In this document: one piece after another, positions 4,508 through 43,361 of the stretch | How the letters are laid out: the number at the start of each line of letters is the position of its first letter | How positions within the stretch are numbered: the stretch's first letter is position 1 | NCBI GenBank assembly: GCA_964460485.1 | Contig: CAYWRY010000001.1 | Location: 21,761 to 85,760 of the forward strand | DNA: 64,000 nt | Source of the DNA: an uncultured Spirochaetales bacterium | GTDB taxonomy: Bacteria > Myxococcota_A > UBA9160 > UBA6930 | Reading direction: 5' to 3' | Position numbers and translations under genes: made by a program | Notes under the pieces: generated by a model | Database searches by the model: none | The model's input: the letters and a program-made list of their open reading frames with translations, nothing else | Told to the model about the DNA's origin: nothing

Positions 4508-4521
4508 CGCAGGCGCGCGGG

Positions 4522-6578: not shown

Positions 6579-6614
6579 CAGCTTCTCGACGCCACCTTCA
6601 CAGGAGGAATGACG

Positions 6615-9933: not shown

Positions 9934-9937
9934 CGCC

Positions 9938-17280: not shown

Positions 17281-17526
17281 TCAGCGGGCGCGCGCAGCGA
17301 CGTAGGCCGCCGCTGCGTCGAGCGTCGCGACCTGCGCGTAGTCCGACTCCGGTACGTCGACGCCCGTGCGCTCGTGGATGGCGACGAGGGCGTTCAGGAA
17401 GTCCAGCGAGTCGATGTCGAGCTGCTCGCGAAGGTCGGCGCGCGGGTCGACGGCCGAGAAGTCCACCTCCGGCGCGTAGCGCGCGAAGACCTCGCACAGG
17501 AGCGCGCGCGCCTCGGAGTTCGTCAT
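17281..17526 (-). CDS. acyl carrier protein (phosphopantetheine-binding)
   Basis: C-terminal 81 aa of ORF 17281..17670. ATGA overlap with the E2 stop. Contains the DIDSLDFLNALVAI Ser attachment motif. Confidence 0.8.
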   Translation of the reverse strand: MTNSEARALLCEVFARYAPEVDFSAVDPRADLREQLDIDSLDFLNALVAIHERTGVDVPESDYAQVATLDAAAAYVAARAR

Positions 17527-20777: not shown

Positions 20778-22528
20778 GACTCCGGCTCCAGGGTCGAGAG
20801 GTCGCCTTCGGGCAGGCCGAGCTCGCGCGCCTTGAGCAGGCGGCGCAGCACCTTGCCGCTGCGCGTCTTCGGCAGCGCGTCGACGAAGGCAATCTCCTTC
20901 GGCGCCACCGCGGGCCCGAGCCGCGCGCGCGCGAAGCCGAGCAGCTCGCGAAGCAGCGCCTCGCTCGGGGCGACGCCCGGCCGCAGGGCGACGAAGGCCT
21001 TGATCACCGCGCCGGCGATCGGGTCGGGCTTCCCGATCACGCCGGCCTCGAGCACGGCCGGGTGAGCCATCAGCGCGCTCTCCACCTCGAAGGGGCCGAC
21101 GAGGTGCCCGGAGGACTTGATCACGTCGTCCGCCCGGCCCACGAACCAGTAGTAACCGTCGGCGTCGGCGCGCACGAGGTCGCCGGACAGGTACCAGCCG
21201 TCCGCGAAGCACTTGCGGTAGCGCTCCTCCTCGCCCAGGTAGGCGCGGAACATCGACGGCCAGCCCGCGCGCAGCGCGAGCTCGCCCTGCGCATCCGGCT
21301 CCGTCAGCACGCGCACCCGGTCGCCCTCGCGCGCGATCACGGCGGCCTCGATCCCCGGCAGCGGCTTGCCCATCGAGCCGGGCTTGATCGGGAGCGCCGC
21401 GTAGTTCGCGACCATGATCCCGCCGGTTTCCGTTTGCCACCAGTTGTCGTGGATGGGCAGCCCGAACGCCTCGATGCCCCAGTGCACGGCCTCGGGGTTC
21501 AGCGGCTCGCCTACGCTCGCAACGAAGCGCAGCGCCGGCAGCCGTCGCTCGCGCGCGAGCGCGCTGCCCGCCTTGATCAGCATGCGCACCGCGGTGGGCG
21601 CCGTGTACCAGACGCTCACGCGCTCGCGCTCCAGCGTCTCGTACCAGCGGCGCGGCTCGAACTCGGCTTCGTCGACGATGGACGTGAGGCCGAGCGCGAG
21701 CGGCGCCACGATTCCGTAAGAAGTGCCCGTCACCCAGCCGGGATCGGCCGTGCACCAGAACACGTCGCCGGGCTGGAGGTCGAGGGCGAAGCGCGCCGTC
21801 GCCACGTGCGCAACGACCGCTTCGTGCACGTGCAGGGCGCCCTTCGGCTTGCCCGTGGTGCCGCTGGTGAAGTGCAGCAGGGCCGGGTCCTCGGGCCGCG
21901 TGGGTGCGATCGCATGCTCCGGCTTCTCCGCCGCGAGCAGTGCGTCGAGATCGAGCGTGCCCGGCGGCAGCGTCTCGCCGGGAGCGCAGCCCGCGAGCAG
22001 CACGTGGGCGAGCCCCGGCACGCGCGCTCGGATGGGCGCGACCTTGCGCGCGTAGAGAGCGGGGGTCGTGACGAGCACGCGGCCGTCGCCGAGCGCGAGC
22101 CGCTGCTGGACCGGCTCGGGGCCGAACGCCGAGAACATCGGGCAGAAGACCGCGCGCTGGCGGAGCGCTCCGAGCGCCGCGACGTAGAGCGCCGGGATCC
22201 GGCCCGCGAGCGTGAAGACGCGCTCGCCCGGGGCGACGCCCAGCCGCGCCAGCAGGTTCGCGAAGCGGGCCGCGTACCCCGTCAGCTCGCGGAACGTGAG
22301 GTCCCGCGGCGCGCCGCTCTTGGGCAGCCAGCGCAGCGCCACGCGGTTCGCGTTCGCTCCGCCGGCGTGCCGGTCGAGCGCCTCGTGAGCGATGTTGAGG
22401 CCCGCGCCGCCGGGCAGCCCGTCGAGCAGGCTCCGCGCGTCACTCCAGCGGAAACGCGCGCGCTCTCGCTCGTAATCGGCGAGGTTGGGCGGACGCACCA
22501 GGGACTTCTCGATCGTTCCGGACGCCAC
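20774..22528 (-). CDS. AMP-forming acyl/acetyl-CoA synthetase
   Basis: Full ORF, 584 aa, GTG start. Contains [27 protein letters not shown] and [11 protein letters not shown]. Confidence 0.9.
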
Positions 22529-22540: not shown

Positions 22541-22556
22541 AGCAAGCCGCGTACCG
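22541..22556 (-). promoter_or_regulatory. sigma-54 promoter candidate for the acs-E1-E2-ACP operon
   Basis: Minus strand reads CGGTACGCGGCTTGCT with exact spacing and a perfect -12. Only 13 nt lie between the GC and the GTG at 22528, so the transcript would be essentially leaderless. Confidence 0.55.
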
Positions 22557-22659
22557 GCCGCGCTGGCTCCTGTGCGGAGCGGGCGTCCTCGGGCAAGGGA
22601 TCCGGATCGGCGCCCGGGGCGACCTGCCCCGGCTCAGGGCGATCGCGAGGCGCGCCGTC

Positions 22660-24645: not shown

Positions 24646-24661
24646 AGCAAGGTTCGTTCCG
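24646..24661 (-). promoter_or_regulatory. sigma-54 promoter candidate for the hypothetical-ldt-DUF882 operon
   Basis: Minus strand reads CGGAACGAACCTTGCT with exact spacing and a perfect -12 TTGCT. There are 33 nt to the start at 24613. Confidence 0.5.
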
Positions 24662-24723: not shown

Positions 24724-24739
24724 CGGCATGGCCGATGCA
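24724..24739 (+). promoter_or_regulatory. sigma-54 promoter candidate for the PRT-malic enzyme operon
   Basis: CGGCATGGCCGATGCA. There are 26 nt to the ATG at 24765, with AGGAGG at 24753-24758. Divergent from 24646..24661. Confidence 0.55.
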
Positions 24740-30456: not shown

Positions 30457-30472
30457 GGCAATCGTCGTGCCG
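30457..30472 (-). promoter_or_regulatory. sigma-54 promoter candidate for the hemerythrin-CBS-ATPase operon
   Basis: Minus strand reads CGGCACGACGATTGCC (GGCACG-N4-TTGC, near consensus). There are 36 nt to the GTG at 30421. Confidence 0.7.
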
Positions 30473-30587
30473 CGTGCGGCGCCGCGGGCTGACCGCGCGG
30501 GCGTGGCGTGCGGGACGGTTCGCCCGCTCGTCGGGGCGCGCCGCATCAGGCCGGGCGCTCCCACCGGGCGACGATCCCCGCCCGCGG

Positions 30588-30603
30588 CGGCACGAACGCT
30601 GCT
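30588..30603 (+). promoter_or_regulatory. sigma-54 promoter candidate for the DUF4404 gene
   Basis: CGGCACGAACGCTGCT. Only 13 nt lie between the GC and the ATG at 30616, so the transcript is predicted leaderless. Divergent from 30457..30472. Confidence 0.6.
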
Positions 30604-30881: not shown

Positions 30882-32117
30882 TCACGGCTGCGCCTGGCGC
30901 AGCCCGGCGAGCGCGCGCAGCTCGGCGAGCCAATCGGTCACGTCGCGCGGGACGTCGAGCCCGGCCGAGCCCATCCAGCCGAGCACCGTCTGCTCCTCGA
31001 GCACGCCGTAGGCGTCGCGCGCGATGTCGCTGTTCGGCGCCGCGCGGATCGCGCTCTCGAGATAGGCCTCCGCCTGCGGCAGACCGCGGGACGGGTCGTT
31101 GCGGAGCTCGGCGAGGCCGAGCAGGTAGCTCGCCTCCGCGCGCTCGTCGGGGTTCGCGAGGCCGCGCGCGAGCGCGCGGTGCAAGAGCGCCGAGGCGACC
31201 AGGTCGTGCACGAGCGCGCTCCGATCCGCGGGAAAGCGCCGGCGCGCCTCCGCCTTGGCCAGCACCTCGCGCGCCTCGACCAGCGTCGAGGCCTGCTCGT
31301 AGGGAGCGAGTTGAGCCAGCGCCTCGCGCCAGCTCGCGAAGAGCTGGCCGAGATAGGGCGGGGCGTCGCCGCGCGCGGCGAGCGCCGCCAGCATGCGTCC
31401 TGCGCGCGCATAGTCGCTGCGCACGCGCAGGGCGACCACCAGGTAGTCCTCGAGCGCGCCCTCGAAGTCGAGCGCCGAGAGCGAGGTCGAGCGCGCGGCG
31501 AAAAGCTTCTCGTAGGTTTCGAGCGCTGCGTCGAACTGGCGCGTTGCGATCAGCAGCCGCGCGCGCGCGGTGGGCGGCGCGCTCTGCATGCGCGCGGTGA
31601 GCGGGACGCCCACCGCGTGCTCGCGGGGATCGGGCAGGCGCACGTGACAGCCGGCGCAGTCGTCCACCACCTGGTTCAGCAGGAAACGCGCCTCGTCGGA
31701 GCTGCCCGCCTGAAAGCGCTTCGCGATCTCGGTCGCGTCCTCGGAGAGCCGGCGGGCGAAGAATCGGAAGCCGGGCGTGTCGTCGCCCCCGTGGAGCTCG
31801 AGCGCCGAGGCGTTGCGGGAGAGCTCGCGCAGCGCGCCGCGCAGCTCCTCGCGCGCGGCGGGCGAGGCGAACGTCTCCTGATCCTGTGCGTACGGCAGTG
31901 CGATCTCGAGCGCCGAGACGATGCCCACCATGCGCGCGGGGGTGTTCGGCAGCTCCTCGGCCGCCGGCTGCTGAGGCGCACAAGCGGTCGAGGTGGCGAA
32001 CAGGACGACGAAAGAGAATGGGACGAAACGCCCCGCTCCGCGTCCGATCGCCTCGATGCGCGCCCCGCCATCGCAGCTCGCCACGTGCGCCGCCCCCGCC
32101 GTTTCCGAGTCCTTCAC
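30882..32117 (-). CDS. secreted/lipoprotein-like helical protein with a single CxxCH motif (paralog of 7073..8266)
   Basis: C-terminal ~411 aa of the 1448-aa track ORF 30882..35228. GTG at 32117 sits 9 nt after GGAGG; an alternative GTG lies at 32084. Hydrophobic FVPFSFVVLFATSTAC, then DDCAGCHVRLP. Collinear similarity to 7073..8266 runs to the C-terminus (...LAELRALAG vs ...[10 protein letters not shown]). Confidence 0.7.
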   Translation of the reverse strand: MKDSETAGAAHVASCDGGARIEAIGRGAGRFVPFSFVVLFATSTACAPQQPAAEELPNTPARMVGIVSALEIALPYAQDQETFASPAAREELRGALRELSRNASALELHGGDDTPGFRFFARRLSEDATEIAKRFQAGSSDEARFLLNQVVDDCAGCHVRLPDPREHAVGVPLTARMQSAPPTARARLLIATRQFDAALETYEKLFAARSTSLSALDFEGALEDYLVVALRVRSDYARAGRMLAALAARGDAPPYLGQLFASWREALAQLAPYEQASTLVEAREVLAKAEARRRFPADRSALVHDLVASALLHRALARGLANPDERAEASYLLGLAELRNDPSRGLPQAEAYLESAIRAAPNSDIARDAYGVLEEQTVLGWMGSAGLDVPRDVTDWLAELRALAGLRQAQP

Positions 32118-32148: not shown

Positions 32149-32164
32149 TGCAGGCAACATGCCG
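32149..32164 (-). promoter_or_regulatory. sigma-54 promoter candidate for the CxxCH paralog 2 gene
   Basis: Minus strand reads CGGCATGTTGCCTGCA with exact spacing. There are 32 nt to the GTG at 32117, containing GGAGG. Confidence 0.55.
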
Positions 32165-32173: not shown

Positions 32174-32189
32174 TGGCATCGCCCCTGCA
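32174..32189 (+). promoter_or_regulatory. sigma-54 promoter candidate for the small membrane protein gene
   Basis: TGGCATCGCCCCTGCA. There are 15 nt to the ATG at 32204. It is back-to-back with 32149..32164, only 9 bp apart. Confidence 0.6.
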
Positions 32190-32517: not shown

Positions 32518-32533
32518 CGGCACGCTTCCTGCT
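32518..32533 (+). promoter_or_regulatory. sigma-54 promoter candidate for the coiled-coil/prs-like/AMP-phosphorylase-like/beta-CASP operon
   Basis: CGGCACGCTTCCTGCT (GGCACG-N4-CTGCT). There are 42 nt to the ATG at 32575, with GAGGAGGA in between. Confidence 0.7.
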
Positions 32534-32574: not shown

Positions 32575-32838
32575 ATGACGCTTCGCGACGTGCTGAAAGA
32601 GGAGCTCGATGCGTTCCGCGAGCTGCGGGACGAGCTCCGCGTGCAGTCCCAGCTCGGCAAGGCGGAGGCCCGCGATCGCCTGCGCGAGCTCGAGCAGCGC
32701 TGGCACAAGCTCGAAGGGCGGCTCGACGGCGTCCGCAAGGATGCAAAGGGCGACGCCGAAGACGTCCGCGAAGCCCTGCGGCTGCTCGCGCGCGAGCTGA
32801 AGGAAGGCTTCGAGCACGTGCGGTCGCGGCTGTCGTAG
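32575..32838 (+). CDS. small coiled-coil protein (hypothetical)
   Basis: ORF 32539..32838. The ATG at 32575 sits 4 nt after GAGGAGGA. MTLRDVLKEELDAFRELRDELRVQSQLGKAEARDRLRELEQRWHKLEGRL... is highly charged and helical. Confidence 0.6.
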   Translation: MTLRDVLKEELDAFRELRDELRVQSQLGKAEARDRLRELEQRWHKLEGRLDGVRKDAKGDAEDVREALRLLARELKEGFEHVRSRLS

Positions 32839-32864
32839 CTCGCTCGGCCCGAGGCGCAGAAGTC

Positions 32865-33776
32865 ATGCTGATGCGAACGACGCGCCTGGCAGTGCACTGC
32901 TTTCCGGATTCGCTCGTGTTCGCTCGCAAGCTCGCGAGCGCGCTCGGGGCCACCCTCTCGCGCGTCGCGCTGCATTACTTCCCCGACGGCGAGACGCGCG
33001 TGCGAATCGAGCCCGGCAGCGGGGACGCGCTGCTCGTTCGCTCGCTGCACGATCCCAACGCGAAGCTGTTCGAGCTGCTGCTCGCGGCGTCGGCGCTGCG
33101 CGAGGGCGGCGCGCCCAGCGTCACGCTGGTCGCCCCCTACCTGCCGTACATGCGGCAGGACCGCGCCTTCGCGCCCGGAGAGGCCGTGTCCCAGCGCGTG
33201 CTGGGTCGACTGCTCGGCAGCAACTTCGAGCGCGTGATCTCCGTCGAGCCGCACCTGCACCGCATTGGCTCGCTCGCCGAGGTGTTCCCCTGCGAGACGC
33301 TCGCGCTCTCGGCGGCGCCGGCGATCGCGCGCTGGCTCGCCGCACAGCGCGAGCCCTGCTGGGTGGTGGGCCCCGACGAGGAATCGGAGCGCTGGGTGCG
33401 CGCGATCGGCGAGGCGGCGAAGCTGCCGCACGCGGTCGCGAGGAAGCAGCGCGCAGGCGACGACGCGGTGCTCGTCAGCTTGCCGCGCGGAGTGCGCGCT
33501 CCCTGTGCGCGCGCGGTGATCGTGGACGACATCGCCAGCTCCGGCGCCACCCTCGCAGCCGCTGCGCGCGCCCTCTACGAGGCCGGCGCAGAGTCCGTCG
33601 ACGCGGTCGTCGCCCACGCGATCTTCGCGCCGGGCGCGGAGGCGCGGCTGCGCGAGGCGCGCATCGGGCGCTTCGTCTCCTGCGACACGCTTCCGCATCC
33701 GACCAATGCAATCGAGGTGGCGGGCATCATCGCCGACGCCCTGCTCGCGGGCTCGGTCGCCCACGCGACCGTCTGA
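32865..33776 (+). CDS. ribose-phosphate pyrophosphokinase (PRPP synthetase) family protein
   Basis: Full ORF, 303 aa. Contains YFPDGETRVRI, LVAPYLPYMRQDR and the PRPP loop VIVDDIASSGATL. Confidence 0.8.
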   Translation: MLMRTTRLAVHCFPDSLVFARKLASALGATLSRVALHYFPDGETRVRIEPGSGDALLVRSLHDPNAKLFELLLAASALREGGAPSVTLVAPYLPYMRQDRAFAPGEAVSQRVLGRLLGSNFERVISVEPHLHRIGSLAEVFPCETLALSAAPAIARWLAAQREPCWVVGPDEESERWVRAIGEAAKLPHAVARKQRAGDDAVLVSLPRGVRAPCARAVIVDDIASSGATLAAAARALYEAGAESVDAVVAHAIFAPGAEARLREARIGRFVSCDTLPHPTNAIEVAGIIADALLAGSVAHATV

Positions 33777-35267
33777 ATGTTCCGCCTGAAGCGCATGTGC
33801 ATCGACACGCTCTCGGAGCACGTCGTGTTCATCCACGAGAGCGCCGTCGCGGAGGGCCGCCTCGGCTTCCAGCCCCTCGACCGCGTGCGCCTCCTCGACG
33901 GCAACGGCCGCGAGCTGACGGGTGTCCTCAACTTCTGTCGAGACGCGCTGTTGGCGCGCGACGAGATCGGGCTCTCCGACGTCGCCTTCCGCGACTTCGG
34001 GCTTCCGGAAGGGGCGCGCGTGCGCGCGACCCAGGCACCCGCACCCGACAGCGTCGAGCACGTGCGGCACAAGCTGCGCGGCGGCCGCCTCGCGCGCGCG
34101 GACTTCGACGCCGTGCTGCGCGACGTGTGCGCTCGCCGCTACTCGAAGCCCGAGCTCTCGATGTTCGTGCTCGCCTGCTCGCTGCGGCAGCTCGACCGGG
34201 CCGAGCTGGTGGCGTTCACCGAGGCGATGGTCGCCTGCGGCTCGCGGCTGGCCTGGGACGCCGAGGTCGTCGTCGACAAGCATTCGATCGGCGGCGTGCC
34301 GGGGAATCGCACCACCATGGTCGTGGTGCCGATCGTGACGTCGCTGGGCCTCACCATGCCGAAGACGTCGTCTCGCGCGATCACGAGCCCGAGCGGAACC
34401 GCGGACACGATGGCGACGCTTGCGGAGGTCGCGCTCTCGCCGGAGACCATTCGCCGCGTTGTGGAGCAGACCGGCGGCTGCATCGCCTGGGGCGGCGCCC
34501 TCGACCTGGCGCCGGCGGACGACGTGCTGATCACCGTCGAGCGCCCGATGGGCATCGACACCGAGGCGCAGATGATCGCGTCGATCCTCTCGAAGAAGAA
34601 GACGGCGGGCGCGACCCACGCGCTGATCGACGTGCCCGTGGGACCGAGCGCGAAGGTGCGCAGCCACCGCGCCGGAGAGGAGTTGGCCGAGCTGTTCCGC
34701 CACGTGGGCGAAGCCGTCGGGCTCACGCTCGACGTCGTGCTGACGGAGGCGCACGGGCCGATCGGCTGCGGCGTCGGGCCGCGCCTCGAAGCGCTCGACG
34801 TGCTCGCGGTGCTGGAGCGCAAGCCCGACGCGCCGCGCGACCTGCGCGAGAAGAGCCTGTTCCTCGCGGCGCGGCTGCTCGAGCGCGCGGGCGCCGTGCC
34901 CGACGCGGGTGGCTACCGCGCGGCGCAGGAGGCGCTCGACTCGGGCGCCGCCCTCGAGCGCTTCTCGGCGATTCGCGCGCTCCAGGGAGCGCGCGACCTC
35001 CCGCCGCCCGCGCCCTTCACGGCCGTCGTGCCCGCGCCCAGCGACGGCCGCGTCCGCGCGCTGGATTGCCTGCGCATCGCGCGCATCGCGAGGCTCGCCG
35101 GCGCGCCGGCGAATCCCGCGGCGGGGCTGCGTGTGCTCTGCCGCGTGGGCGACGTGGTCGCGCGCGGCGAGCCGCTGCTCGAGGTCCACGCGCTGAGCGA
35201 GGCGCAGCTCGGCTTCGCGGTGGCGCACGCCGAGCAGGCGCCCGACCTCGTCGAGATCGGGTTCTGA
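33777..35267 (+). CDS. thymidine phosphorylase family protein of the AMP-phosphorylase-like type (long N-terminal domain)
   Basis: Full ORF, 496 aa. The ATG immediately follows the upstream stop. The N-terminal ~90 aa are collinear with the archaeal AMP phosphorylase N-domain as I recall it. Core motifs: DKHSIGGVPGNRTT, SSRAITSPSGTADT and SKKKTAGA. Confidence 0.8.
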   Translation: MFRLKRMCIDTLSEHVVFIHESAVAEGRLGFQPLDRVRLLDGNGRELTGVLNFCRDALLARDEIGLSDVAFRDFGLPEGARVRATQAPAPDSVEHVRHKLRGGRLARADFDAVLRDVCARRYSKPELSMFVLACSLRQLDRAELVAFTEAMVACGSRLAWDAEVVVDKHSIGGVPGNRTTMVVVPIVTSLGLTMPKTSSRAITSPSGTADTMATLAEVALSPETIRRVVEQTGGCIAWGGALDLAPADDVLITVERPMGIDTEAQMIASILSKKKTAGATHALIDVPVGPSAKVRSHRAGEELAELFRHVGEAVGLTLDVVLTEAHGPIGCGVGPRLEALDVLAVLERKPDAPRDLREKSLFLAARLLERAGAVPDAGGYRAAQEALDSGAALERFSAIRALQGARDLPPPAPFTAVVPAPSDGRVRALDCLRIARIARLAGAPANPAAGLRVLCRVGDVVARGEPLLEVHALSEAQLGFAVAHAEQAPDLVEIGF

Positions 35268-35299
35268 GCGCGACGCCGGCGGGTGCAGCGGGAGGTCGC

Positions 35300-36691
35300 G
35301 TGAGCGCCACGCTTCAGTTCCTCGGCGCCGCCGAGACCGTGACCGGCAGCCGGTTCCTGCTGCGCACGCGCCGCGCGCGCGTGCTGGTCGACTGCGGGCT
35401 GTTCCAGGGCCCGAAGGCGTTGCGCCTGCGCAACTGGGCGCCGTTCCCGATTCCGCCCCGCGAGCTCGACGCGGTCGTGCTCACGCACGCGCACGTCGAC
35501 CACGCGGGCTTCGTGCCGCGCCTGGTCGCGGAGGGGTTCCGCGGTCCCGTGTTCGCAACGCGCGGGACCGAGGCGCTCTGCGGTGTCGTGCTGCCGGACA
35601 GCGGGCGCCTGCACGAAGAGGACGCCAGCGTCGCCAACGCGGAGGGCTGGTCGCGGCACGCGCCCGCGCTGCCGCTCTACACCGAGGAGGATGCGCTGCG
35701 CGCGCTCGAGCGCTTCCGCCGCGTGGAGACGGATGCGTGGTTCGACGTCGCGCCCGGCGTGCGCGGCCGCTTCGCCCGCGCCGGCCACATCCTCGGGGCC
35801 GCGTCGCTCGTCCTGGAGGATGAGGCGTCCGGGCGGCGGGTTGGGTTCTCGGGAGACCTGGGTCGCCCCGCGCACCCGCTGCTCCGGCCGCCCGAGCCCA
35901 TGCCGCGCGTCGACGCGCTGGTGTGCGAGTCGACCTACGGCGACCGCAAGCACCCGCCCAGCGCGGAGGTGGTGGCGGCGCTCGGCGCCGCGATCGCGCG
36001 CACCGCGGCGCGCGGCGGGGTGACGCTGATCCCCGCGTTCGCCGTCGACCGCACCGAGGTCATGCTCCTCCACTTGCGCGAGCTCATGCAGAGCGGCGCC
36101 GCGCCGCGCCTACCGGTCTACGTGGACAGCCCGATGGCGCTCGCGGCGCTCGCCATCTACCGGCGCGCGATCTCCGAGCGCTGGCCCGAGATTCGCGCCG
36201 ATCTGCGGGGTGACGGGACGCTCTTCGATCCCGGCGACCTGCGCGAGGTGCGCACGCTGGCGCAGTCGCGCGAGCTGCAGGCCGGCGGCATCGGGCCGTG
36301 CATCATCGTGTCCGCCTCGGGCATGGCGACCGGCGGTCGCGTGCTGCGCCATCTGGCGCGGCACCTGCCCGACCCGCGTGCGAGCGTCGCGCTGGTCGGT
36401 TATCAGGTGCCCGGCACGCGCGGGCACCGGCTCTTGCGCGGCGAGCGCGCCGTCAAGATGCTGGGGCGCTACGTGCCCGTGCGCGCGGAGGTGGTGAACC
36501 TCGCCGGCTTCTCGGTGCACGCGGACGCGGACGAGACGCTCGCCTGGCTCGGCAGCGCCGAGGCCGCGCCGGAAATCTGCTACGCGGTGCATGGCGAGCC
36601 GGAGCCGACGCGCGCGCTGGCCGCGCGCATCGACGCCGAGCTCGGCTGGGCGGCGGTCGCGCCGCGCGATGGCGAGCGCGTGGGGATCTGA
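35300..36691 (+). CDS. MBL-fold beta-CASP family hydrolase (RNA-metabolising type)
   Basis: C-terminal 463 aa of ORF 33797..36691. GTG at 35300 follows GGAGG. Contains GSRFLL, THAHVDHAG, CESTYGD and FSVHADADE. Confidence 0.85.
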   Translation: MSATLQFLGAAETVTGSRFLLRTRRARVLVDCGLFQGPKALRLRNWAPFPIPPRELDAVVLTHAHVDHAGFVPRLVAEGFRGPVFATRGTEALCGVVLPDSGRLHEEDASVANAEGWSRHAPALPLYTEEDALRALERFRRVETDAWFDVAPGVRGRFARAGHILGAASLVLEDEASGRRVGFSGDLGRPAHPLLRPPEPMPRVDALVCESTYGDRKHPPSAEVVAALGAAIARTAARGGVTLIPAFAVDRTEVMLLHLRELMQSGAAPRLPVYVDSPMALAALAIYRRAISERWPEIRADLRGDGTLFDPGDLREVRTLAQSRELQAGGIGPCIIVSASGMATGGRVLRHLARHLPDPRASVALVGYQVPGTRGHRLLRGERAVKMLGRYVPVRAEVVNLAGFSVHADADETLAWLGSAEAAPEICYAVHGEPEPTRALAARIDAELGWAAVAPRDGERVGI

Positions 36692-36786: not shown

Positions 36787-37293
36787 TCACCGCCTCCACG
36801 TCACGCGCACGAGGTTTTCGCGCGACGAGGCCGGGACGCGCAGCGTGCCGCGGTGGGCGCGGCGGAGCGCAGCCCCGATCCCGCGCGCCAGCTTGGAGTC
36901 GGTGGTCGCGATCTCGAGGCCGTCGGCCGTCGCCTGGATCGACGCGATGCGCTTCAGCGGGTGCTCGGCGCGCTCGCGCTCTTCGACGTTGCGCGCCAGG
37001 TGCTCGAGCTCTTCGCGATGCTCGGCGACGTACGCACCATGCATCTCCACCACGCCCGCCGGATAGCCGTCCGCGATGCGCTTGCAGGCAGGGCACACCA
37101 CCGGCGCCGCGTCGGCCGGAGCCGCCCCCCAGGCCCAGCGCCCGTTCCGGTAGATCGCGCGGCACTCGCTGCACGCGCTCGGGTCGGGAAGCTTGCGCCG
37201 CAGCGCATAGGGGTCCGAGCGCAGGGGCTTCTTCTGCGCATCCTGGCGCGGCAGGGATCCGGCAGCGTGAGTCTTCGAGCGTTGGCGTCGCAT
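36787..37293 (-). CDS. small Cys-cluster protein (CxxC...CxxC), BCAM0308-like
   Basis: C-terminal 168 aa of ORF 36787..37452. GAGGAGGA lies upstream of the ATG at 37293. CSECRAIYRNGRWAW...VCPACKRIADGYPAGVVEM. The family name is from memory of an NCBI label and needs checking. Confidence 0.65.
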   Translation of the reverse strand: MRRQRSKTHAAGSLPRQDAQKKPLRSDPYALRRKLPDPSACSECRAIYRNGRWAWGAAPADAAPVVCPACKRIADGYPAGVVEMHGAYVAEHREELEHLARNVEERERAEHPLKRIASIQATADGLEIATTDSKLARGIGAALRRAHRGTLRVPASSRENLVRVTWRR

Positions 37294-37316
37294 GGGTCCT
37301 CCTCGGGCGGAGAGAA

Positions 37317-37332
37317 TGCACGGCCCGTACCG
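37317..37332 (-). promoter_or_regulatory. sigma-54 promoter candidate for the BCAM0308-like gene
   Basis: Minus strand reads CGGTACGGGCCGTGCA with exact spacing. There are 24 nt to the ATG at 37293. Confidence 0.45.
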
Positions 37333-37450
37333 CGGGCGCTGGGCGGGCCCCGCCCGGTGGTGCCGCCGCGCGGCGGGCGGCGTTCGGGCCCCTGCGCGGC
37401 GCCCCGCACGGTGTTTGATTGCCGCGGAGCGCCGGCCCATAGTTCGAGCC

Positions 37451-38695
37451 ATGAACTTCGATCGCGAGTCCCTCCTCGCGTTCTACGAGCTCAGCGACAC
37501 GGAGATCGCCCGCCTCGCCGAGCTGCGGCCGATGCTCGAGAAGCGTGCCGACAGCTTGGTCGCCGCCTTCTACCGGCACCTGCTGGGCTTCCCCGAGACG
37601 CGCAAGCTGCTGCGCGATCCGCGGGTCACCGAGCGGCTGCTGGGGGAGCAGAAGCGCTACCTGCTGAGCCTCGCCTCGCCCACGATCGACGACGCGTACC
37701 TGGAGCAGAGACGCCAGATCGGCGTGGCGCACGAGCGCATCGGGCTCGCGCCGACCTGGTACCTGGGCGCCTATTCGCTCTACGAGGCGCTGCTCGTCCC
37801 CATCTTGCTCGAGGAGTACTCATCGAACCTGGAGCGCGCCCGCGGGCTGCTCATGACCCTGCGGCGGCGGCTGCATCTCGACGCGGCGCTCGCGCTCGAG
37901 ACCTACGTGGACCGTCGCGAGCGGGATCTCGAGTACCTGAACCAGCAGCTTGCCGAGGCGAGCCGCAAGCTCGCGCGCGACCTCGAGAGCACCGGCGTCG
38001 AGCTGCGCTCGAGCCGCGCGCGGGCGCAGGCGGCCGAGCGGCTCGCCTCGATCGGCACCCTCGTCGCCGGCCTCGCCCACGAGATCGGCACGCCCATGGG
38101 CGTGATCCAGGGCCACGCCAAGCTGCTCGAGAACGCCGTGCAGGACGAGAGCGGGCGCTGGCGCCTGCGGACGATTCAGGCACAGATCTCGCGGATCGCG
38201 CGGATCATGGAGAGCCTGCTCAACATGGCGCGGCCCTCCGCGCGGCGTACCCGCGTCCTGGTTGCGCTGCCGGCGGTGCTCGACAACACGCTGGCTTTCC
38301 TGACGGAGCGGCTCACGCGGCGGCGCGTCGAGGTGGTGCGCGACTACGCCGAGACGCCGTCGATCCGCGCCGACCCCGAGGCGCTCCAGCAGATCTTCCT
38401 GAACCTGGTGATGAACGCGATCGACGCCATGCCAAGCGGCGGAGAGCTGCGCGTCTCGATCGCCCCGATCGAGGCCGGCGCGGAGGTGCGCATCGCGGAC
38501 AACGGGAGCGGCATGCCCCCCGAGGCGCGCGAGCGGATCTTCGACCCGTTCTTCACGACGAAGGAGGCCGGCCAGGGCCACGGGCTCGGCCTCGCGGTCG
38601 CCCAAGGCATCGCCCACGACCACGGCGGCGAAATCACCCTGGTCCGCTCCGGCCCGGGCGGCACCGAGTTTCGCGTCACGCTCGCGGCTGAGTGA
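37451..38695 (+). CDS. globin-coupled (protoglobin domain) sensor histidine kinase, cytoplasmic
   Basis: C-terminal 414 aa of ORF 37292..38695. The N-terminal sensor-globin pattern includes the proximal-His region RRQIGVAHERIGLAPTWYLGAY. This is followed by a coiled coil, H-box LAHEIGTP, N-box NLVMNAIDAM and G-boxes DNGSGM and GHGLGL. Confidence 0.85.
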   Translation: MNFDRESLLAFYELSDTEIARLAELRPMLEKRADSLVAAFYRHLLGFPETRKLLRDPRVTERLLGEQKRYLLSLASPTIDDAYLEQRRQIGVAHERIGLAPTWYLGAYSLYEALLVPILLEEYSSNLERARGLLMTLRRRLHLDAALALETYVDRRERDLEYLNQQLAEASRKLARDLESTGVELRSSRARAQAAERLASIGTLVAGLAHEIGTPMGVIQGHAKLLENAVQDESGRWRLRTIQAQISRIARIMESLLNMARPSARRTRVLVALPAVLDNTLAFLTERLTRRRVEVVRDYAETPSIRADPEALQQIFLNLVMNAIDAMPSGGELRVSIAPIEAGAEVRIADNGSGMPPEARERIFDPFFTTKEAGQGHGLGLAVAQGIAHDHGGEITLVRSGPGGTEFRVTLAAE

Positions 38696-38798
38696 GCGGG
38701 GGACCCGGGGCTGGGGCACGGCGTCGCCGCCCGCGGCGTGATGTGGTGCAGAATGCCTCGCAACGGGAGGTTCGAGGTGCCGCATCGGCTGGCGCCAT

Positions 38799-38814
38799 TG
38801 GCATGAAGCCTGCT
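38799..38814 (+). promoter_or_regulatory. sigma-54 promoter candidate for the activator gene itself
   Basis: TGGCATGAAGCCTGCT. There are 15 nt between the GC and the ATG at 38829, so the leader is predicted to be very short. Implies autoregulation. Confidence 0.6.
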
Positions 38815-38828
38815 CCAACTAGAACCGC

Positions 38829-40238
38829 ATGCGACACACGGCTCAGATCCTCATCGTCGACGATGACCGCGCCATGCGCGAAATGCTTGCCTCGCTGTTC
38901 AAGGAGCGCGGGCTCTGGGTGGAAGAGGCGAGCTCCGCTCGCGCTGCACTCGAGCTCGCGGCGGAGCGCGAGTTCGACGTGGTGCTCTCCGACATCCGCA
39001 TGCCCGGCCTCTCGGGCATCGAGCTGGTGGGACAGCTGCGCCGGCTGCGTCCCAACACGCCGGTCGTGCTGATGACGGCATTCGGCACGATCGACTCGGC
39101 GGTCGAGGCGATGCGCGCGGGCGCCTTCGACTACATCACCAAGCCCTTCGAGCCGGAAGCGGTGAGCTTCGCCGTGGATCGCGCCATCGAGCGCGCGGCC
39201 CTGGCGCGCGAGAACGAGACGCTGCGGCGCGCGGTGCAGACCACCGGCGAGCTGGGCGAGTTGATCGGCTCGAGCGCTGCGATGCGCGACATCATCGCGC
39301 TGATCCAGCGCGTGGGTCACAGCCGCGCGAGCGTGCTGATCACGGGCGAGAGCGGCACGGGAAAGGAGGTGATCGCGCGGACGCTGCACTTCCACGGCGC
39401 GCGTCGCGAGATGCCGTTCGTGCCGATCAACTGCACGGCGATTCCCGAGGGCCTGCTCGAGAGCGAGCTGTTCGGTCACGTGCGCGGCGCCTTCACCGGC
39501 GCGCACACCAACAAGCGCGGCCTGTTCGAGAAGGCCAATGGCGGGACGCTGTTCCTCGACGAGGTCGGCGACATGGGCCTCGCGCTCCAGGGCAAGCTGC
39601 TGCGCGTGCTCCAGGATCGCGAGATCCGGCCGGTGGGCGGTACCCAGACGATCAAGGTGGACGTGCGCATCATCGCGGCCACCAACAAGGACCTGCCCGC
39701 CGAGATCGCCGCCGGGCGTTTCCGCGAGGACCTGTTCTACCGGCTGAACGTCGTGCCCATCCACGTCCCGCCCCTGCGCGAGCGCACCGACGACATCCCG
39801 GCGCTGGTGGAGGCCTTCCTGCGGCGCCACGGCGAGGGGCGCAAGCGCTTCGTCTCCGCCGAGGCGATGGCCGTGCTGCGCGCGCAGCCGTGGCGCGGCA
39901 ACGCCCGCGAGCTGGAGAACACGATCGAGCGCGCGATCGCGCTGACGGACGTGGAGACGCTGGGCCCCGCCGACATCCCGCTGCCGGCGAGCACCGGGGG
40001 TCCGCCCGCGACAGGAGCCTCCGCAGGAGCGCCGGTGGATCTCGACACCCTGCTGCGCGCTGCGGCGGCGCGCGGCACGAGCCTGCGCGACCTCGACGAG
40101 AAGTACACGGCCATCGTGCTCGCCCACACGGGGGGCAACAAGGTGCGCGCGTCGCAGATCCTCGGCATCGACCGGAAGACGCTCTACCGTCGCGCCGAGC
40201 GCCGCGCCCGCGAAGAGGGCGCGAGCGACGAGGAGTGA
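38829..40238 (+). CDS. sigma-54-dependent response regulator (NtrC family: REC-AAA+-HTH)
   Basis: Full ORF, 469 aa. REC domain ILIVDDD...SDIRMPG, Walker A GESGTGKE, the sigma-54 contact loop GAFTGA, FLDEVG and a C-terminal Fis-type HTH NKVRASQILGIDRKTLYRR. Confidence 0.92.
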   Translation: MRHTAQILIVDDDRAMREMLASLFKERGLWVEEASSARAALELAAEREFDVVLSDIRMPGLSGIELVGQLRRLRPNTPVVLMTAFGTIDSAVEAMRAGAFDYITKPFEPEAVSFAVDRAIERAALARENETLRRAVQTTGELGELIGSSAAMRDIIALIQRVGHSRASVLITGESGTGKEVIARTLHFHGARREMPFVPINCTAIPEGLLESELFGHVRGAFTGAHTNKRGLFEKANGGTLFLDEVGDMGLALQGKLLRVLQDREIRPVGGTQTIKVDVRIIAATNKDLPAEIAAGRFREDLFYRLNVVPIHVPPLRERTDDIPALVEAFLRRHGEGRKRFVSAEAMAVLRAQPWRGNARELENTIERAIALTDVETLGPADIPLPASTGGPPATGASAGAPVDLDTLLRAAAARGTSLRDLDEKYTAIVLAHTGGNKVRASQILGIDRKTLYRRAERRAREEGASDEE

Positions 40239-40241
40239 CGC

Positions 40242-41126
40242 GTGAAGAGCCCCCGCAAGATCCTGGTGGCGACCGACTTCTCCGCCGGCGCCGAGCGCGC
40301 GTTGGACACGGCGCTCGCGCTCGCCGCTCCAGCGAAGGGCGAAGTGCACGTGGTGCACGCGCTCGAGATCCCGCTGCCGATGTTCGAGCCCTACGCGGTC
40401 GCGCTTCCGCCGGAGCTGATCGGCGCCGCCCGCAAGACGGCGCAAGAGAAGCTCGCCGCGGCCGGCGAGAAGGTGCGCGCGCGCGGTCTCACCGGCACGA
40501 CCTTCCTCGGCGAGGTGCCGGCTTCGATGTGCGTCGCCGAGCGCGCCAAGGCAATCGGCGCGGATCTGGCGGTGATCGGCACCCACGGCCACACCGGCTT
40601 CAAGCGCTTCCTGCTCGGCAGCGTCGCGGAGCGCACGGTGAAGGAATCTCCGGTCTCGGTGCTCACGGTGAAGGGCGAGGGGCGCGCCGAGGCGCCCAAG
40701 ACGATCGTGATCGGCGTCGACTTCTCGAAGCACTCCCAGGAAGCCGTGGAGCTGGCCGCGGACTGGGCGCGGGCGTTCGGCGCGACTCTCTACCTGGTGC
40801 ACGGCCTCGAGCTGCGCATGCCGTTCGTCACTCCGTACGAGGTATCGGTGCCGGACGCGCTCATCGACGCCGCCTACGCGGAGGGCAAGAAGCGCCTCCA
40901 GGAGCTGGCCGGGAAGCTCACGGGCGTGAACGTGCGCACGGAGCTCGCGAGCGCACCCGCCCACGCGGCCCTCGACGGCGTGGCAGAACGCGTCCGCGCG
41001 GACTTGATCGTGACCGGCTCGCGCGGCCTCGGCGGCATCAAGCATGCGGTGCTCGGCAGCGTCGCGGAGCGCACGCTGCGCCACGCGCCGTGCAGCGTGC
41101 TCACGGTGAAGTCGCACATCGGGTGA
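40242..41126 (+). CDS. tandem universal stress protein (paralog of 3623..4507)
   Basis: Full ORF, 294 aa. GTG is 4 nt after the activator stop. Roughly 60% identical by eye to 3623..4507 and the same length. Confidence 0.9.
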   Translation: MKSPRKILVATDFSAGAERALDTALALAAPAKGEVHVVHALEIPLPMFEPYAVALPPELIGAARKTAQEKLAAAGEKVRARGLTGTTFLGEVPASMCVAERAKAIGADLAVIGTHGHTGFKRFLLGSVAERTVKESPVSVLTVKGEGRAEAPKTIVIGVDFSKHSQEAVELAADWARAFGATLYLVHGLELRMPFVTPYEVSVPDALIDAAYAEGKKRLQELAGKLTGVNVRTELASAPAHAALDGVAERVRADLIVTGSRGLGGIKHAVLGSVAERTLRHAPCSVLTVKSHIG

Positions 41127-41215
41127 CGCGGCGCCGCTCGCGCGGCGGCGAGGCGAAGCATGGGGATCGGTGAGGCGCCGCGAATCCGGCTCGCCGCTCG
41201 CGCCGGCGCGCGCTG

Positions 41216-42808
41216 ATGAGTGCGCTGAGCCAAGTGGGATCGATGCTCGCGCTCGGCGTGGCGCTGCTGCTGTTCGGGATGTGGCTGCTGCGCGAGGGGA
41301 TGCGCGAGTTCGCCGGCGCGCGGCTCCAGCGCTGGCTCACGCGCGTGACCCAGAGCCCACTGCGCGGCGCGCTGGCCGGGGCGGCCGCCACGGCGGCGGT
41401 GCAGTCGTCGAGCGCGACGATCGTCACGGCGATCGGCTTCGCGAGCACGGGTCTACTCGAGTTCTCGCAGGCGCTCGGGATCGTCTTCGGCGCGAACGTC
41501 GGCACGACGCTGACCGGCTGGCTGGTGCTCGCCGTCGGGATCCGCTGGAAGCTCGTCTTCGCAGCGCCGCTGCTCGCCCTCGTGGGCGTCTGGCTGCATC
41601 TCTATGCCCAGCGCCGCCTCGCCAGCGCCGGCCGCGTGATCGGCGGACTCGCGCTCGCGCTGCTCGGCATCGAGGCGCTCGGCAGCGCCCTCTCCGGAGA
41701 CGCGGTGGCGAGCGCACTCGCGGCAGTTCCGGGCGACTCCCTCGGCTCCCGGCTCGCGCTGGTCGCCATCGGCACCGGGATCACGCTGGTCGCGCAGTCC
41801 TCCTCGGCGGGCGTGGCCGCGGCGCTCGCGGCCGTGCATGCGGGGGCGCTCGACCTCGGCCAGGCCGCCGCGGTGGTGATCGGCTTCGACCTCGGCACGA
41901 CGGGCAGCGCCGTGCTCGCCTCGCTGCGCGGCTCGCTCGCCGCGCGCCGCACCAGCTTCGCGCACGTGATCTTCAACGTGTTCACCGCGCTGGGCGCGCT
42001 GCTGCTGCTGCCCGCGCTTTCCGTGCTGCTCGCGGCCCTTGCGCGCAGCGGGCACGCGCTGTCCCCGGAGGTCGCGCTCGTGGCCTTCCACTCGACCTTC
42101 AACCTGGCCGGCGCGGCCGCGGCGATCCCGCTGGCGGGCCCGTTCGCCGCGCTCGTCGAGCGTCTCGTCCCCGAGCGGCGGCGCACGCTCACGCGCCGGC
42201 TCGACGCGCGGCTGCTGCGGGAGCCCGACGTCGCCCTCGACGCGGCGTCGGCGACGCTCGGCGAGATCGCGCTCCAGGCGTTCGCGCGGCTCGAGGGCAT
42301 GCTCGCCGGAACGCCGTGCGATCCCGGCGAGATCGAGCTGCTCGAGAGCGCGCTCGTGGAGACCCAGCAGTTCGTGGCCCGGATCCGGTGTGAGGCGAGC
42401 GAGGCGCAGGCGCTCGTCTCCGCGCTGCACGCCGTCGACGAGCTGCACCGCCTGCTCGATCGCATGCAGCAGGAGGGACGCGTCGCGCCCTTCGCCGAGG
42501 ACGCCGAGCTGGCGGGGCGTGCGCGCGCGCTTTCGGCTGCGCTGCCCCGGCCCCTGGAGGCGCGCGAGCGCGCCGAGGGCGGAGTGGAGCGCGCCGCCGC
42601 CGAGCTCGCCGCGGAGCGCAGCGCTCACCGCGAGCGCATCCTCGCGGCGGCCAGTCGCGGCGAGCTCACGCCCGCGGCGGCCCTCGACCGCATGGACAGC
42701 TGGCGCTGGCTGGAGCGTTGCGCTCACCACGCGTGGCGGATCGTCCACCACATTGGCCGAGTCGGCGCCTCGAGCGGCGCCGAGCGCGAGCCCGCAGAGC
42801 CCTCTTGA
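41216..42808 (+). CDS. Na/Pi cotransporter family protein with PhoU-like C-terminal region
   Basis: Full ORF, 530 aa. Repeated QSSSAT/QSSSAG motifs, GANVGTT/GFDLGTT and multiple TM segments. Confidence 0.85.
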   Translation: MSALSQVGSMLALGVALLLFGMWLLREGMREFAGARLQRWLTRVTQSPLRGALAGAAATAAVQSSSATIVTAIGFASTGLLEFSQALGIVFGANVGTTLTGWLVLAVGIRWKLVFAAPLLALVGVWLHLYAQRRLASAGRVIGGLALALLGIEALGSALSGDAVASALAAVPGDSLGSRLALVAIGTGITLVAQSSSAGVAAALAAVHAGALDLGQAAAVVIGFDLGTTGSAVLASLRGSLAARRTSFAHVIFNVFTALGALLLLPALSVLLAALARSGHALSPEVALVAFHSTFNLAGAAAAIPLAGPFAALVERLVPERRRTLTRRLDARLLREPDVALDAASATLGEIALQAFARLEGMLAGTPCDPGEIELLESALVETQQFVARIRCEASEAQALVSALHAVDELHRLLDRMQQEGRVAPFAEDAELAGRARALSAALPRPLEARERAEGGVERAAAELAAERSAHRERILAAASRGELTPAAALDRMDSWRWLERCAHHAWRIVHHIGRVGASSGAEREPAEPS

Positions 42809-42851: not shown

Positions 42852-42867
42852 GGGCACGCCTCGTGCA
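42852..42867 (+). promoter_or_regulatory. sigma-54 promoter candidate for the second hsp20
   Basis: GGGCACGCCTCGTGCA. There are 39 nt to the ATG at 42906, with GAGGAGG in between. Very similar to the usp site at 3581..3596. Confidence 0.6.
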
Positions 42868-42905: not shown

Positions 42906-43361
42906 ATGGCCGAGAGCAGGCGGCCCGGTGTTGCGACGCACGGGCCCGCCAGAGTCGACCCACCGGCGGAGGGCGCGGGCGCGCGAGTCTATCCCCGCGA
43001 GTTCCTGGAGGCGTTCTGGGGCCACGGCGGGCGGGAGTTGCCCGTACTCGACGTGTGCGAGGGCGAGGACGGCTACGTCGTGAGCGCCGAGCTGCCCGGC
43101 GTGAGCCGCGAGGACGTGACCGTCGAGGTGCTCGGGCACGTGCTCACGATCCGGGGCGAGAAGAAGCGTGCGTGCGAGCGGGAGGCCGAACGCTGCCGCG
43201 TCGTCGAGCGCACGTTCGGCGCGTTCTCGCGCAGCTTCACGCTGCCCGCGGACGCGAACGCAGAGCGCATCTCCGCCACGCTCGAGCACGGTGTGCTGAC
43301 CGTGACGGTGGCCAAGCAATGCGAGCGGGCGCCGCGCGTGATCGAGGTCGGCTCGAGCTGA
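42906..43361 (+). CDS. Hsp20/alpha-crystallin small heat-shock protein (second copy)
   Basis: C-terminal 151 aa of ORF 42039..43361. LDVCEGEDGYVVSAELPGVSREDVTVEVLGHVLTIRGEKK...FSRSFTLPADANAERISATLEHGVLTVTV. Confidence 0.9.
   Translation: MAESRRPGVATHGPARVDPPAEGAGARVYPREFLEAFWGHGGRELPVLDVCEGEDGYVVSAELPGVSREDVTVEVLGHVLTIRGEKKRACEREAERCRVVERTFGAFSRSFTLPADANAERISATLEHGVLTVTVAKQCERAPRVIEVGSS

Follow-up and report, generated by a model that had tools for sequence, protein, structure and literature searches.

What does a heme gas sensor control in uncultured Myxococcota? Very little is known of the physiological outputs of globin-coupled kinases, for which the only worked example is a relay of four proteins, Nmp, in Myxococcus xanthus. 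The question is opened by a locus in a 64-kb stretch of contig CAYWRY010000001.1 (hereafter the window), in which the gene encoding a globin-coupled histidine kinase (37451..38695, + strand) is followed by that of an NtrC-family enhancer-binding protein (38829..40238, +). An earlier note on this DNA had proposed the two proteins as the master switch of a surrounding island dense in sigma-54 promoters. We propose that they form a direct two-component heme-globin/sigma-54 switch of uncultured Myxococcota that controls its own operon and a stress regulon, a reading to which we give a probability of roughly 0.7.

The window has a G+C content of about 74%, and a JGI metagenome contig of 160 kb contains it without a difference; the exact kinase protein was found on JGI metagenome contigs, and the named relatives of the window are uncultured Myxococcota. 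Genes were mapped by codon bias, and the map was checked against the JGI gene calls with their Pfam matches and our own Pfam scans. A pattern scan taking one genome per species returned 567 genomes with a relative of the kinase, and the locus counts given below refer to the best 80 loci, all of them from metagenome-assembled genomes labelled mostly Myxococcota or Deltaproteobacteria. Three loci, L005, L006 and L008, belong to the closest relatives of the window and are syntenic with it.

The kinase, 414 amino acids long, carries at its amino terminus a sensor globin (residues 7-157, 37469..37921; Pfam Protoglobin PF11563, E 2.7e-35), followed by a kinase core (38054..38686) made of HisKA (residues 202-263) and HATPase_c (residues 308-412). 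Pfam matches and alignment place the phospho-acceptor at His210 (codon 38078..38080) and reveal the N, G1 and G2 boxes. Because the protein has no hydrophobic segment (its maximum Kyte-Doolittle 19-mer is 1.29), we take it to be cytoplasmic. In the globin, the motif IGVAHERIGL includes His94, which aligns with the proximal histidine (F8) of HemAT (IASIHLRIGL) and of AfGcHK (IGRVHVRIGL), and Tyr41 aligns with the distal tyrosine (B10) of both proteins. When 18 relatives with identities of 57-83% were aligned, these two residues and His210 did not vary. When solved sensor globins were searched with phmmer, HemAT (1OR4) was matched at E 6e-16, 7O0I at 1e-13, 2W31 at 2e-12 and AfGcHK (5OHE) at 4e-5. 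The best solved relative of the kinase core is ZraS (E 4e-31), whose partner ZraR is an NtrC-family activator. The protein thus has the amino-terminal protoglobin domain, the F8 histidine and B10 tyrosine and the carboxy-terminal transmitter of a globin-coupled sensor, and it probably binds heme and has a ligand-gated output. The soluble globin kinase of the earlier note, with its proximal-histidine region, was in this way confirmed by profile search, hydropathy and alignment, and all four of the Pfam families on which its domain assignments could be checked (Protoglobin, HisKA, HATPase_c and Sigma54_activat) were matched.

The neighbouring activator (469 amino acids) matches Response_reg, Sigma54_activat (E 6e-72), AAA_lid_14 and HTH_8. 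It has the full set of marks of a bacterial enhancer-binding protein: a REC domain whose phospho-acceptor, Asp55, was read from the sequence, an AAA+ domain with Walker A (GESGTGK, at 39345) and Walker B, the ESELFGH motif and the loop GAFTGA (39486..39503), and a Fis-type helix-turn-helix (HTH). The REC-AAA+-HTH architecture with GAFTGA that had been recognised beside the kinase is therefore sound. Its best solved relative is NtrC1 (E 1e-100, over residues 6-376), with NtrX and ZraR also near, and a six-frame motif search found it to be the only sigma-54 activator in the window.

Upstream of the activator gene lies a sigma-54 (-24/-12) promoter, TGGCATGAAGCCTGCT (38799..38814, +), which matches the consensus exactly and is one of only two exact TGGCAYN5YTGCW matches in the window, where 0.06 are expected. 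Of 54 orthologous loci, about 50 have a sigma-54 element at a distance of 12-18 nt from the activator ATG, on its upstream side, and in close relatives it forms an island of identity inside a diverged spacer. Two candidate enhancer palindromes, TGGGGCACGGCGTCGCC (38712..38728) and TGGTGCAGAATGCCTCG (38744..38760), lie further upstream within 38712..38760, with their centres at -79 and -47 relative to the -24 element; the -47 palindrome has aligned counterparts in L006 and L008. The conserved promoter and these sites strongly support a predicted autoregulation of the activator, which had been suspected from the -24/-12 match.

The window promoter ends 14 nt before the activator ATG, leaving a leader of about 4 nt. 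We take the ATG at 38829 as the true start because the REC fold begins at residue 6, and if it is real the leader can only be about 2-6 nt long. A tandem universal stress protein (USP) gene (40242..41126, +), with two Usp stretches recognised by Pfam, already noticed earlier, begins 3 nt past the activator stop codon and on that account is placed in the activator operon; a USP gene follows the activator in about 40% of the loci with an adjacent activator. The next gene encodes a Na/Pi cotransporter family protein (41216..42808, +; Pfam match of the JGI gene call). Since the promoter scans of the window found no sigma-54 site in front of it, it is probably the last gene of the operon.

The kinase gene differs in its promoter. 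The earlier note had singled it out as the one unit without a -24/-12 match and hence possibly constitutive, and both points stood, as none of 78 loci has a sigma-54 match within 70 nt upstream of the kinase gene. The gene is not, however, promoterless: a sigma-70-like element, TTGATT-17-CATAGT, can be read at 37415..37443 (+), and its -35 box is conserved in relatives, with TTGACA at this position in L005, L006 and L008; 58 of 78 loci have TTGAC 5′ of the kinase start codon, in most cases between -34 and -38. A generic sigma-70 scan of 37250..41300 gave nothing above threshold, and it is by its conservation that the kinase promoter is recognised. Expression of the kinase would accordingly be constitutive and from a sigma-70-type promoter, an assignment that the conserved box and the missing sigma-54 site strongly support. 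The -10 hexamer ends only 7 nt before the ATG, for which reason the kinase mRNA is predicted to be leaderless; together with the short activator leader, this leads us to predict that both mRNAs are leaderless or nearly so. Similar spacing occurs in the window at the sigma-54 sites 2454+ (ATG 2485) and 30588+ (ATG 30616). Here and at the activator gene, 12-16 nt lie between the end of the -12 element and the start codon, and the transcripts would have no Shine-Dalgarno sequence; we found no paper joining the terms leaderless, sigma-54 and Myxococcus. On the other side of the kinase promoter, a divergent gene (36787..37293, -) has its own sigma-54 site at 37317..37332 (-), conserved in the three syntenic relatives. 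Its match to the NMD3 family is weak (E 4.7e-8), and relatives of this gene occur near the kinase in nine loci.

Are the two proteins partners? Sequence extends far enough downstream to be informative in 64 loci, and in 53 of these the next gene on the same strand, directly downstream, is a full-length orthologue of the activator (58-94% identity); one further locus has a frameshifted adjacent activator, and four have an activator within 10 kb. Within 10 kb of the kinase, the 80 loci contain a single globin, 79 of them a single kinase core, and 63 a single REC domain, while 11 have no REC domain and six have more than one. Adjacency by itself is not proof, and nothing beyond that caveat speaks for the two genes being chance neighbours. 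Their order has been kept in 53 of 64 species although the proteins have diverged to 50-60% identity, and no rival REC or kinase domain lies nearby, so that we dismiss a chance association as very unlikely. A cognate sensor-kinase/activator pair is strongly supported by this conservation, and phosphotransfer from the kinase would then be to Asp55 of the activator. In one sub-group (L036, L037, L040 and about 15 similar loci) a CBS-like gene of 130-160 residues lies on the opposite strand between kinase and activator; its sigma-54 promoter is divergent from that of the activator, and the two have common enhancer sites.

Where would such an activator bind? Aligning the region 5′ of the activator promoters from about 50 species disclosed a 17-bp palindrome, aaTGtGkCA-N3-TGmCaCAtt, of the general form TGnGnCA-N3-TGnCnCA, which as a rule is present twice, at a spacing of about 21 bp. 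This 7-3-7 geometry, often in tandem, is that of the classical enteric NtrC site. The palindrome scores at least 14 bits upstream of 88% of the activator promoters as against 1.1% of random control positions. Counted from the -24 element, its centres cluster at upstream distances of 46-49, 56-60, 65-69, 76-79 and 86-89 bp and are phased with a period of 10.5 bp (Rayleigh p 3e-10). At the other sigma-54 matches in these loci it is found at 10.5% versus 1.1%, an enrichment of about ten-fold, and is again phased (p 7e-7); the genes behind these further promoters encode at least 11 CBS proteins, seven USPs and three hemerythrins, besides an AAA_33 kinase and an acyl-activating enzyme. As a control, the palindrome is absent at the sigma-54 sites of two Nmp-type loci. 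The protein binding the palindrome would be the activator itself and not another regulator.

In the window clade the palindrome is shifted toward G+C, to about TGGGGCG-N3-CGCCCCA, as footprints in the three syntenic relatives showed; GGGACGGTTCGCCCG, between the hemerythrin promoter and that of a small open reading frame (ORF) of 83 amino acids, is conserved in four of four genomes (the window and these three). A degenerate form, YGKGNCR-N3-YGNCMCR with at most one mismatch, has 21 matches in the window. Four of them are intergenic, and each of these has a sigma-54 site 47-88 bp downstream of it (p 3e-4, an optimistic figure, like the other statistics of the shifted motif, which was defined after the data had been seen). 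One of the four, TGGGTCGCAGCGACCCA (2399..2415), belongs to a promoter pair that had not been used in defining the motif and stands at exactly -47 and -58. A motif derived from the four genomes by expectation maximisation (EM), TGGGGCG-CAG-CGCCCCA, reached 10.6 bits compared with 5.9-7.9 in shuffles, and it occurs with at least 9 bits at -47, -57, -68, -76, -88 or -98 for 12 of the 20 window promoters. Because it was shaped in this way, we count the shifted motif as moderate evidence. Three other candidates were tried and rejected: the NmpR site GCGCA-N5-TGCGC, for which the window shows no enrichment (42 observed, 36.6 expected); spaced dyads, for which a blind enumeration upstream of 18 promoters returned nothing convincing; and CCACCGGGCGG, a motif picked by eye, which is not enriched either (87 observed, 94 expected).

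Put together, these elements suggest the following mechanism. The soluble globin kinase would be made constitutively from a sigma-70-type promoter and a leaderless mRNA. The gas or redox state of its heme, most likely the binding or release of O2, would set the balance of kinase and phosphatase activity toward His210, and the phosphoryl group would pass directly to Asp55 of the adjacent NtrC-family activator. Once phosphorylated, the activator may assemble on the phased 17-bp palindromes, whose centres precede the -24 element by 47, 57, 68, 78 or 88 bp, and open the sigma-54 promoters through ATP hydrolysis and its GAFTGA loop. Its targets would be its own operon (the activator, the tandem USP and probably the Na/Pi transporter), so that it would reinforce its own synthesis by positive feedback, and a stress regulon with CBS, USP, hemerythrin and related genes that would take in at least a large part of a cluster of about 20 promoters spanning about 40 kb. 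The locus thereby offers a set of parts for the study of such switches: a cognate activator, a 17-bp phased enhancer site, a conserved autoregulatory promoter and a candidate regulon.

The existence of the promoter-dense island described in the earlier note was borne out. Sites were required to have GG-N10-GC intact and at most two (or three) mismatches to TGGCAC-N5-TTGCW. With at most two mismatches, 15 of the 21 sites fall in upstream intergenic DNA of the right orientation, which amounts to 5.6 kb and in which 0.27 are expected (Poisson p 2e-21); with at most three, 20 of 93 do. Of these some 20 correctly placed sites, with the GG/GC spacing, upstream position and gene orientation of sigma-54 promoters, 19 lie between 2334 and 42867 and one, a weak one, at 53993. 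Three further promoters are conserved in four genomes. This dense cluster and the recurrent near-leaderless spacing provide material for studies of sigma-54 transcription and of translation initiation. According to a Pfam scan, the part of the window from 45 to 64 kb contains ordinary metabolic genes and no signalling proteins.

From left to right, the promoter scan first places CGGCACTACGCTTGCA (2334..2349, -), the site of a gene encoding a CBS + DksA-zinc-finger protein (1495..2298), which lies 58 bp from TGGGTCGCAGCGACCCA, and the site of a K+ channel gene (2454..2469, +; ATG at 2485, 15 nt downstream), at 47 bp from the same palindrome. A USP-MgtE operon (3623..5520) follows a site at 3581..3596 (+) with a palindrome at 3525..3541 (-48). 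Divergent sites at 6415..6430 (-) and 6563..6578 (+) precede the gene of an SDH-protease/NfeD protein and an HSP20-unknown-GroEL-HPF-Tll0287 operon, respectively, with a palindrome between them at 6498..6514 (-76/-57). In the latter operon (6609-11262) the GroEL paralogue is not accompanied by GroES, and the ribosome hibernation factor has a weak match to the cold-shock domain (CSD). The idea that the GroEL-like gene represents an unusual class of chaperonin was dropped, as it is an ordinary GroEL paralogue by sequence. The next divergent pair, 12947..12962 (-) and 13106..13121 (+), serves a glutamate dehydrogenase and an AAA_33/zeta-toxin-like kinase, with the palindrome TGAGTCACAGTGCCACG at 13042..13058 (-88/-56). 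A site at 14840..14855 (+), before a cyclopropane-fatty-acid synthase operon, and the divergent pair 24646..24661 (-) and 24724..24739 (+) have no recognisable palindrome, and between them an operon for AMP-binding, 2-oxoacid dehydrogenase and acyl carrier proteins (17281..22528) has its site at 22541..22556 (-) with CGGGGCGACCTGCCCCG at 22615..22631 (-67).

Closer to the kinase, divergent sites at 30457..30472 (-) and 30588..30603 (+) serve a hemerythrin-CBS-P-type ATPase operon and the 83-amino-acid ORF. The tandem palindromes 30511..30527 and 30532..30548 lie between them, at -47/-68 relative to one promoter and at -69/-48 relative to its counterpart, and both promoters together with the GGGACGnnTCGCCCG block are kept in L005, L006 and L008. 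In the promoter of the ORF, CGGCACGAACGCTGCTA is invariant in three of four genomes and has one base changed in the fourth. Sites back to back at 32149..32164 (-), of a gene for a 411-amino-acid protein of no recognised family, and at 32174..32189 (+) have as their only nearby palindrome one at 32019..32035, 147 nt upstream of the + site. The site at 32518..32533 (+) belongs to an operon (32575..36691) of an 87-amino-acid ORF and PRPP-synthetase-like, phosphorylase-like and beta-CASP genes, and that at 42852..42867 (+) to an HSP20 gene (42906..43361). Other gene types behind the island sites are cell-wall enzymes (YkuD, M15 peptidase), a phosphoribosyltransferase, a malic enzyme and several small ORFs.

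Some of these genes deserve a separate word. The proteins encoded at 7181-8266 (+) and 30882-32117 (-) are paralogous, have no Pfam match and each stand behind a sigma-54 site; they are about 37% identical to the same relatives, and their homologues occur near the kinase in 13 other genomes. The small ORFs 30616-30867 (83 residues) and 32575-32838 (87 residues) likewise have no Pfam match on record, and both are conserved in relatives. At 32865-36691, a PRPP-synthetase-like protein, a 496-residue Glycos_transf_3 protein (AMP/thymidine phosphorylase-like) and a beta-CASP metallo-beta-lactamase nuclease are encoded together, an arrangement kept in the three closest relatives, and this suggests nucleotide or RNA salvage under stress.

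How much of the island, then, does the pair control? In its widest form, the proposal would make the pair the master regulator of a clustered dormancy/hibernation programme of about 40 kb and about 20 sigma-54 promoters, with the switch itself present in hundreds of uncultured Myxococcota species, and a convergent counterpart, built on sigma-54, of the mycobacterial DosR regulon. The programme would comprise USPs, HSP20s and the GroEL paralogue, the ribosome hibernation factor, CBS proteins and hemerythrin, together with ion transporters and genes of nucleotide salvage, and several of its transcripts would be near-leaderless. We regard this wide form as tentative, and below even odds. The alternative is that the pair is real and has a small local regulon, made of its own operon and a few CBS, USP and hemerythrin promoters, with activators from elsewhere in the genome serving most of the island promoters, whose clustering would then reflect a common stress theme and not a single switch; this, too, is a possibility that we hold short of even. 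That the pair's activator is the sole sigma-54 activator in 64 kb, that plausible phased sites are spread from 2.3 to 39 kb with a weak one at 54 kb, and that the families behind palindrome-bearing promoters elsewhere are those that fill the island all speak for the wider regulon.

Several points weigh the other way, against the switch and its reach as we propose them. No palindrome is recognisable with the EM motif at eight of the 20 promoters (14840+, 24646-, 24724+, 32149-, 32174+, 32518+, 37317- and 42852+), and the shifted motif on which the count depends was, as said, shaped after the fact. A strict weight matrix built from the lower-GC relatives finds only a handful of window sites, four in number (13040, 32017, 38742 and one in coding sequence), and in the loci of other genomes a strong palindrome accompanies only about 10% of the sigma-54-like matches. 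Synteny of the island with the pair is only partial beyond L005, L006 and L008, so that the gene order is kept in the closest relatives alone. Myxococcota typically encode dozens of sigma-54 activators, and because they encode so many, others could serve part of the island; M. xanthus, for one, has been described with many NtrC-like regulators (PMC11841059). Heme binding, the ligand, phosphotransfer and DNA binding are all deduced from sequence, and the sequence would be compatible with either polarity of the signal, heme kinases of both signs being known. Since the palindrome is found at 12 of 20 promoters, a switch for the whole island, as the earlier note had it, is only partly supported: the phased palindrome at those 12 sigma-54 sites is in its favour and the remaining eight, which show none, are not. 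Control of a large part of the island, though not of all of it, is the form of the claim that we retain as partly supported.

The earlier note knew of no described case in which a globin sensor drives a large sigma-54 regulon through an NtrC-type partner. This does not hold, as a protoglobin kinase pathway ending in an NtrC-like activator, NmpRSTU, had already been described in M. xanthus (PMC6211767, 2018; PMC11841059, 2025). There NmpU, an AfGcHK homologue whose activity needs the heme-binding His96, phosphorylates both a hybrid kinase, NmpS, and a protein of REC-REC type, NmpT, and it is unphosphorylated NmpS that phosphorylates the NtrC-like NmpR, which inverts the sign of the relay (PMC6211767; PMC11841059). 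NmpR acts from tandem GCGCA-N5-TGCGC sites and activates seven sigma-54 promoters and 23 genes, among them its own operon (the first gene of which encodes a CBS protein), nmpUTS, a USP gene, a P-type ATPase gene with cbb3 oxidase, and hemN-hemerythrin; one NmpR reporter was induced by hypoxia (PMC6211767; PMC11841059). Because NmpS inverts the AfGcHK-type signal, hypoxia turns NmpR on.

The resemblance to our locus is considerable. Both systems belong to the same phylum and join a soluble protoglobin kinase as sensor to an NtrC-like REC-AAA+-HTH output that controls its own operon, with tandem palindromes upstream of sigma-54 promoters and a regulon that includes CBS, USP, hemerythrin and P-type ATPase genes. 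One could therefore suppose that the window pair is an NmpRSTU orthologue whose NmpS and NmpT are encoded elsewhere, the kinase acting on the activator indirectly and with inverted sign. The common phylum, end components and targets (CBS, USP, hemerythrin and P-type ATPase; PMC11841059) would fit such an origin, as would the flanks of an Nmp-type locus, L085 (ENA contig_75561, 1-20564), in which an AfGcHK-like globin kinase gene, broken probably by frameshifts, is followed by NmpT-, NmpS- and NmpR-like genes. L085 is flanked by genes for USP, CBS, DksA-type zinc-finger, radical SAM and hemerythrin proteins and by a GAF-type sigma-54 activator beside a NorB-like gene, which are the families of the island. 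This frameshifted locus stood in for NmpU, NmpS, NmpT and NmpR in our comparisons, that with NmpR being made with a homologue of the M. xanthus protein, and a second Nmp-type locus, L086, was too degraded to serve.

Measured against this proxy, the window globin is 25% identical to the NmpU/AfGcHK-type globin of L085, as opposed to at least 49% within its own group, and it scores 27 bits to 5OHE versus 62 bits to HemAT. The activator is 43% identical to the NmpR-like protein as opposed to 58-94% within its group, and its AAA+ domain is equally similar to the unrelated GAF-type activator of L085 as to the NmpR-like protein. Genes of the NmpS or NmpT type (REC-HisKA, REC-REC) are absent from the window and, in 79 of 80 related loci, from the 10 kb around the kinase, and a tight adjacency of kinase and activator is typical of cognate pairs. 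The enhancer site is of the 7-3-7 type and not GCGCA-N5-TGCGC, the NmpR site being unenriched in the window at the counts given above, and the kinase gene has no sigma-54 promoter, unlike nmpU (PMC11841059). Orthology to NmpR and to AfGcHK/NmpU thus failed on the globin, the activator identity, the operon partners, the enhancer site and the kinase promoter, and we consider it improbable. On our preferred reading, a direct switch, the four-protein relay is replaced by an adjacent, directly wired kinase-activator pair, and the seven dispersed Nmp promoters by about 20 clustered ones. The locus defines a second design, simpler and found far more widely, as relatives occur in 567 species-level genomes, and one whose sign may be opposite to that of the Nmp relay.

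The sign of the signal bears on AfGcHK of Anaeromyxobacter sp. Fw109-5 (PDB 5OHE), the globin-coupled histidine kinase that has been characterised (PMC8697598; PMC13287260). AfGcHK is active as Fe(II)-O2 or Fe(II)-CO and inactive as deoxy Fe(II), and DosS, by comparison, is inhibited by O2 (PMC13287260). If our kinase is active in its unliganded state, the system would be induced by hypoxia, which would fit the gene content; if not, it would be an oxygen-exposure response, and either may be the case. The second course has the sensor switched on by O2 or CO as in AfGcHK, so that it would not report O2 depletion and would instead serve an oxygen-sensitive organism on exposure, or it may respond to NO or to heme redox state. 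Direct wiring combined with AfGcHK-like behaviour would indeed phosphorylate the activator when O2 is present (PMC13287260), and no inverting, NmpS-like step was present within 10 kb. The island, however, is made of the families (USP, HSP20, ribosome hibernation factor, CBS, hemerythrin and P-type ATPase) that hypoxia induces in the regulons of NmpR (PMC11841059) and DosR (PMC3177182), the kinase globin is not of AfGcHK type, and either polarity exists among heme kinases (PMC13287260). We find activation by O2 or another of these signals quite conceivable, if somewhat doubtful. The two kinases have in common a soluble sensor globin + HisKA + HATPase_c architecture, with the distal tyrosine and proximal histidine kept, but their globins match at only 26.7 bits (E 4e-5), and a database search with the AfGcHK globin matched only fragments of at most 210 residues. 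The partners differ as well, since a REC-REC protein, NmpT, is described for the M. xanthus homologue of AfGcHK (PMC11841059), in place of the NtrC-type activator seen here.

The closest solved sensor globins, with the same B10 tyrosine and F8 histidine, are those of HemAT from Bacillus subtilis (1OR4), a Vibrio globin-STAS sensor (7O0I) and GsGCS from Geobacter (2W31), whose outputs are not histidine kinases: they consist of a chemotaxis transducer, a STAS domain or a domain in the membrane. In regulon content, the nearest parallel is the DosR system of Mycobacterium tuberculosis, whose regulon has a CBS protein and phosphoribosyltransferases. It also includes USPs, HSP20 (hspX), the S30AE hibernation factor Rv0079, the P-type ATPase ctpF and the AAA_33-type Rv2004c (PMC3177182). 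Like our pair, DosS/DosT-DosR uses heme kinases and an autoregulated regulator acting on tandem sites, with a regulon drawn from the same families (PMC3177182), but its heme is held in GAF domains and its regulator is of the NarL/LuxR type, acting at sigma-70-type promoters. No solved chain labelled M. tuberculosis is among the matches listed for the island USP (E<=1e-8) or CBS protein, and the two systems are alike by convergence, in their protein families only. With NtrB-NtrC and ZraS-ZraR, finally, the pair has its catalytic parts in common, the kinase core being closest to ZraS and the activator to NtrC1, NtrX and ZraR; the input is a heme globin in place of a PAS or periplasmic domain, and the transcripts here appear to be near-leaderless. 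What is new in this locus is a direct-wired and widespread variant of the globin-to-sigma-54 pathway, for which an enhancer site is now defined, and which combines near-leaderless sigma-54 promoters with a sigma-54 stress island of unusual density.

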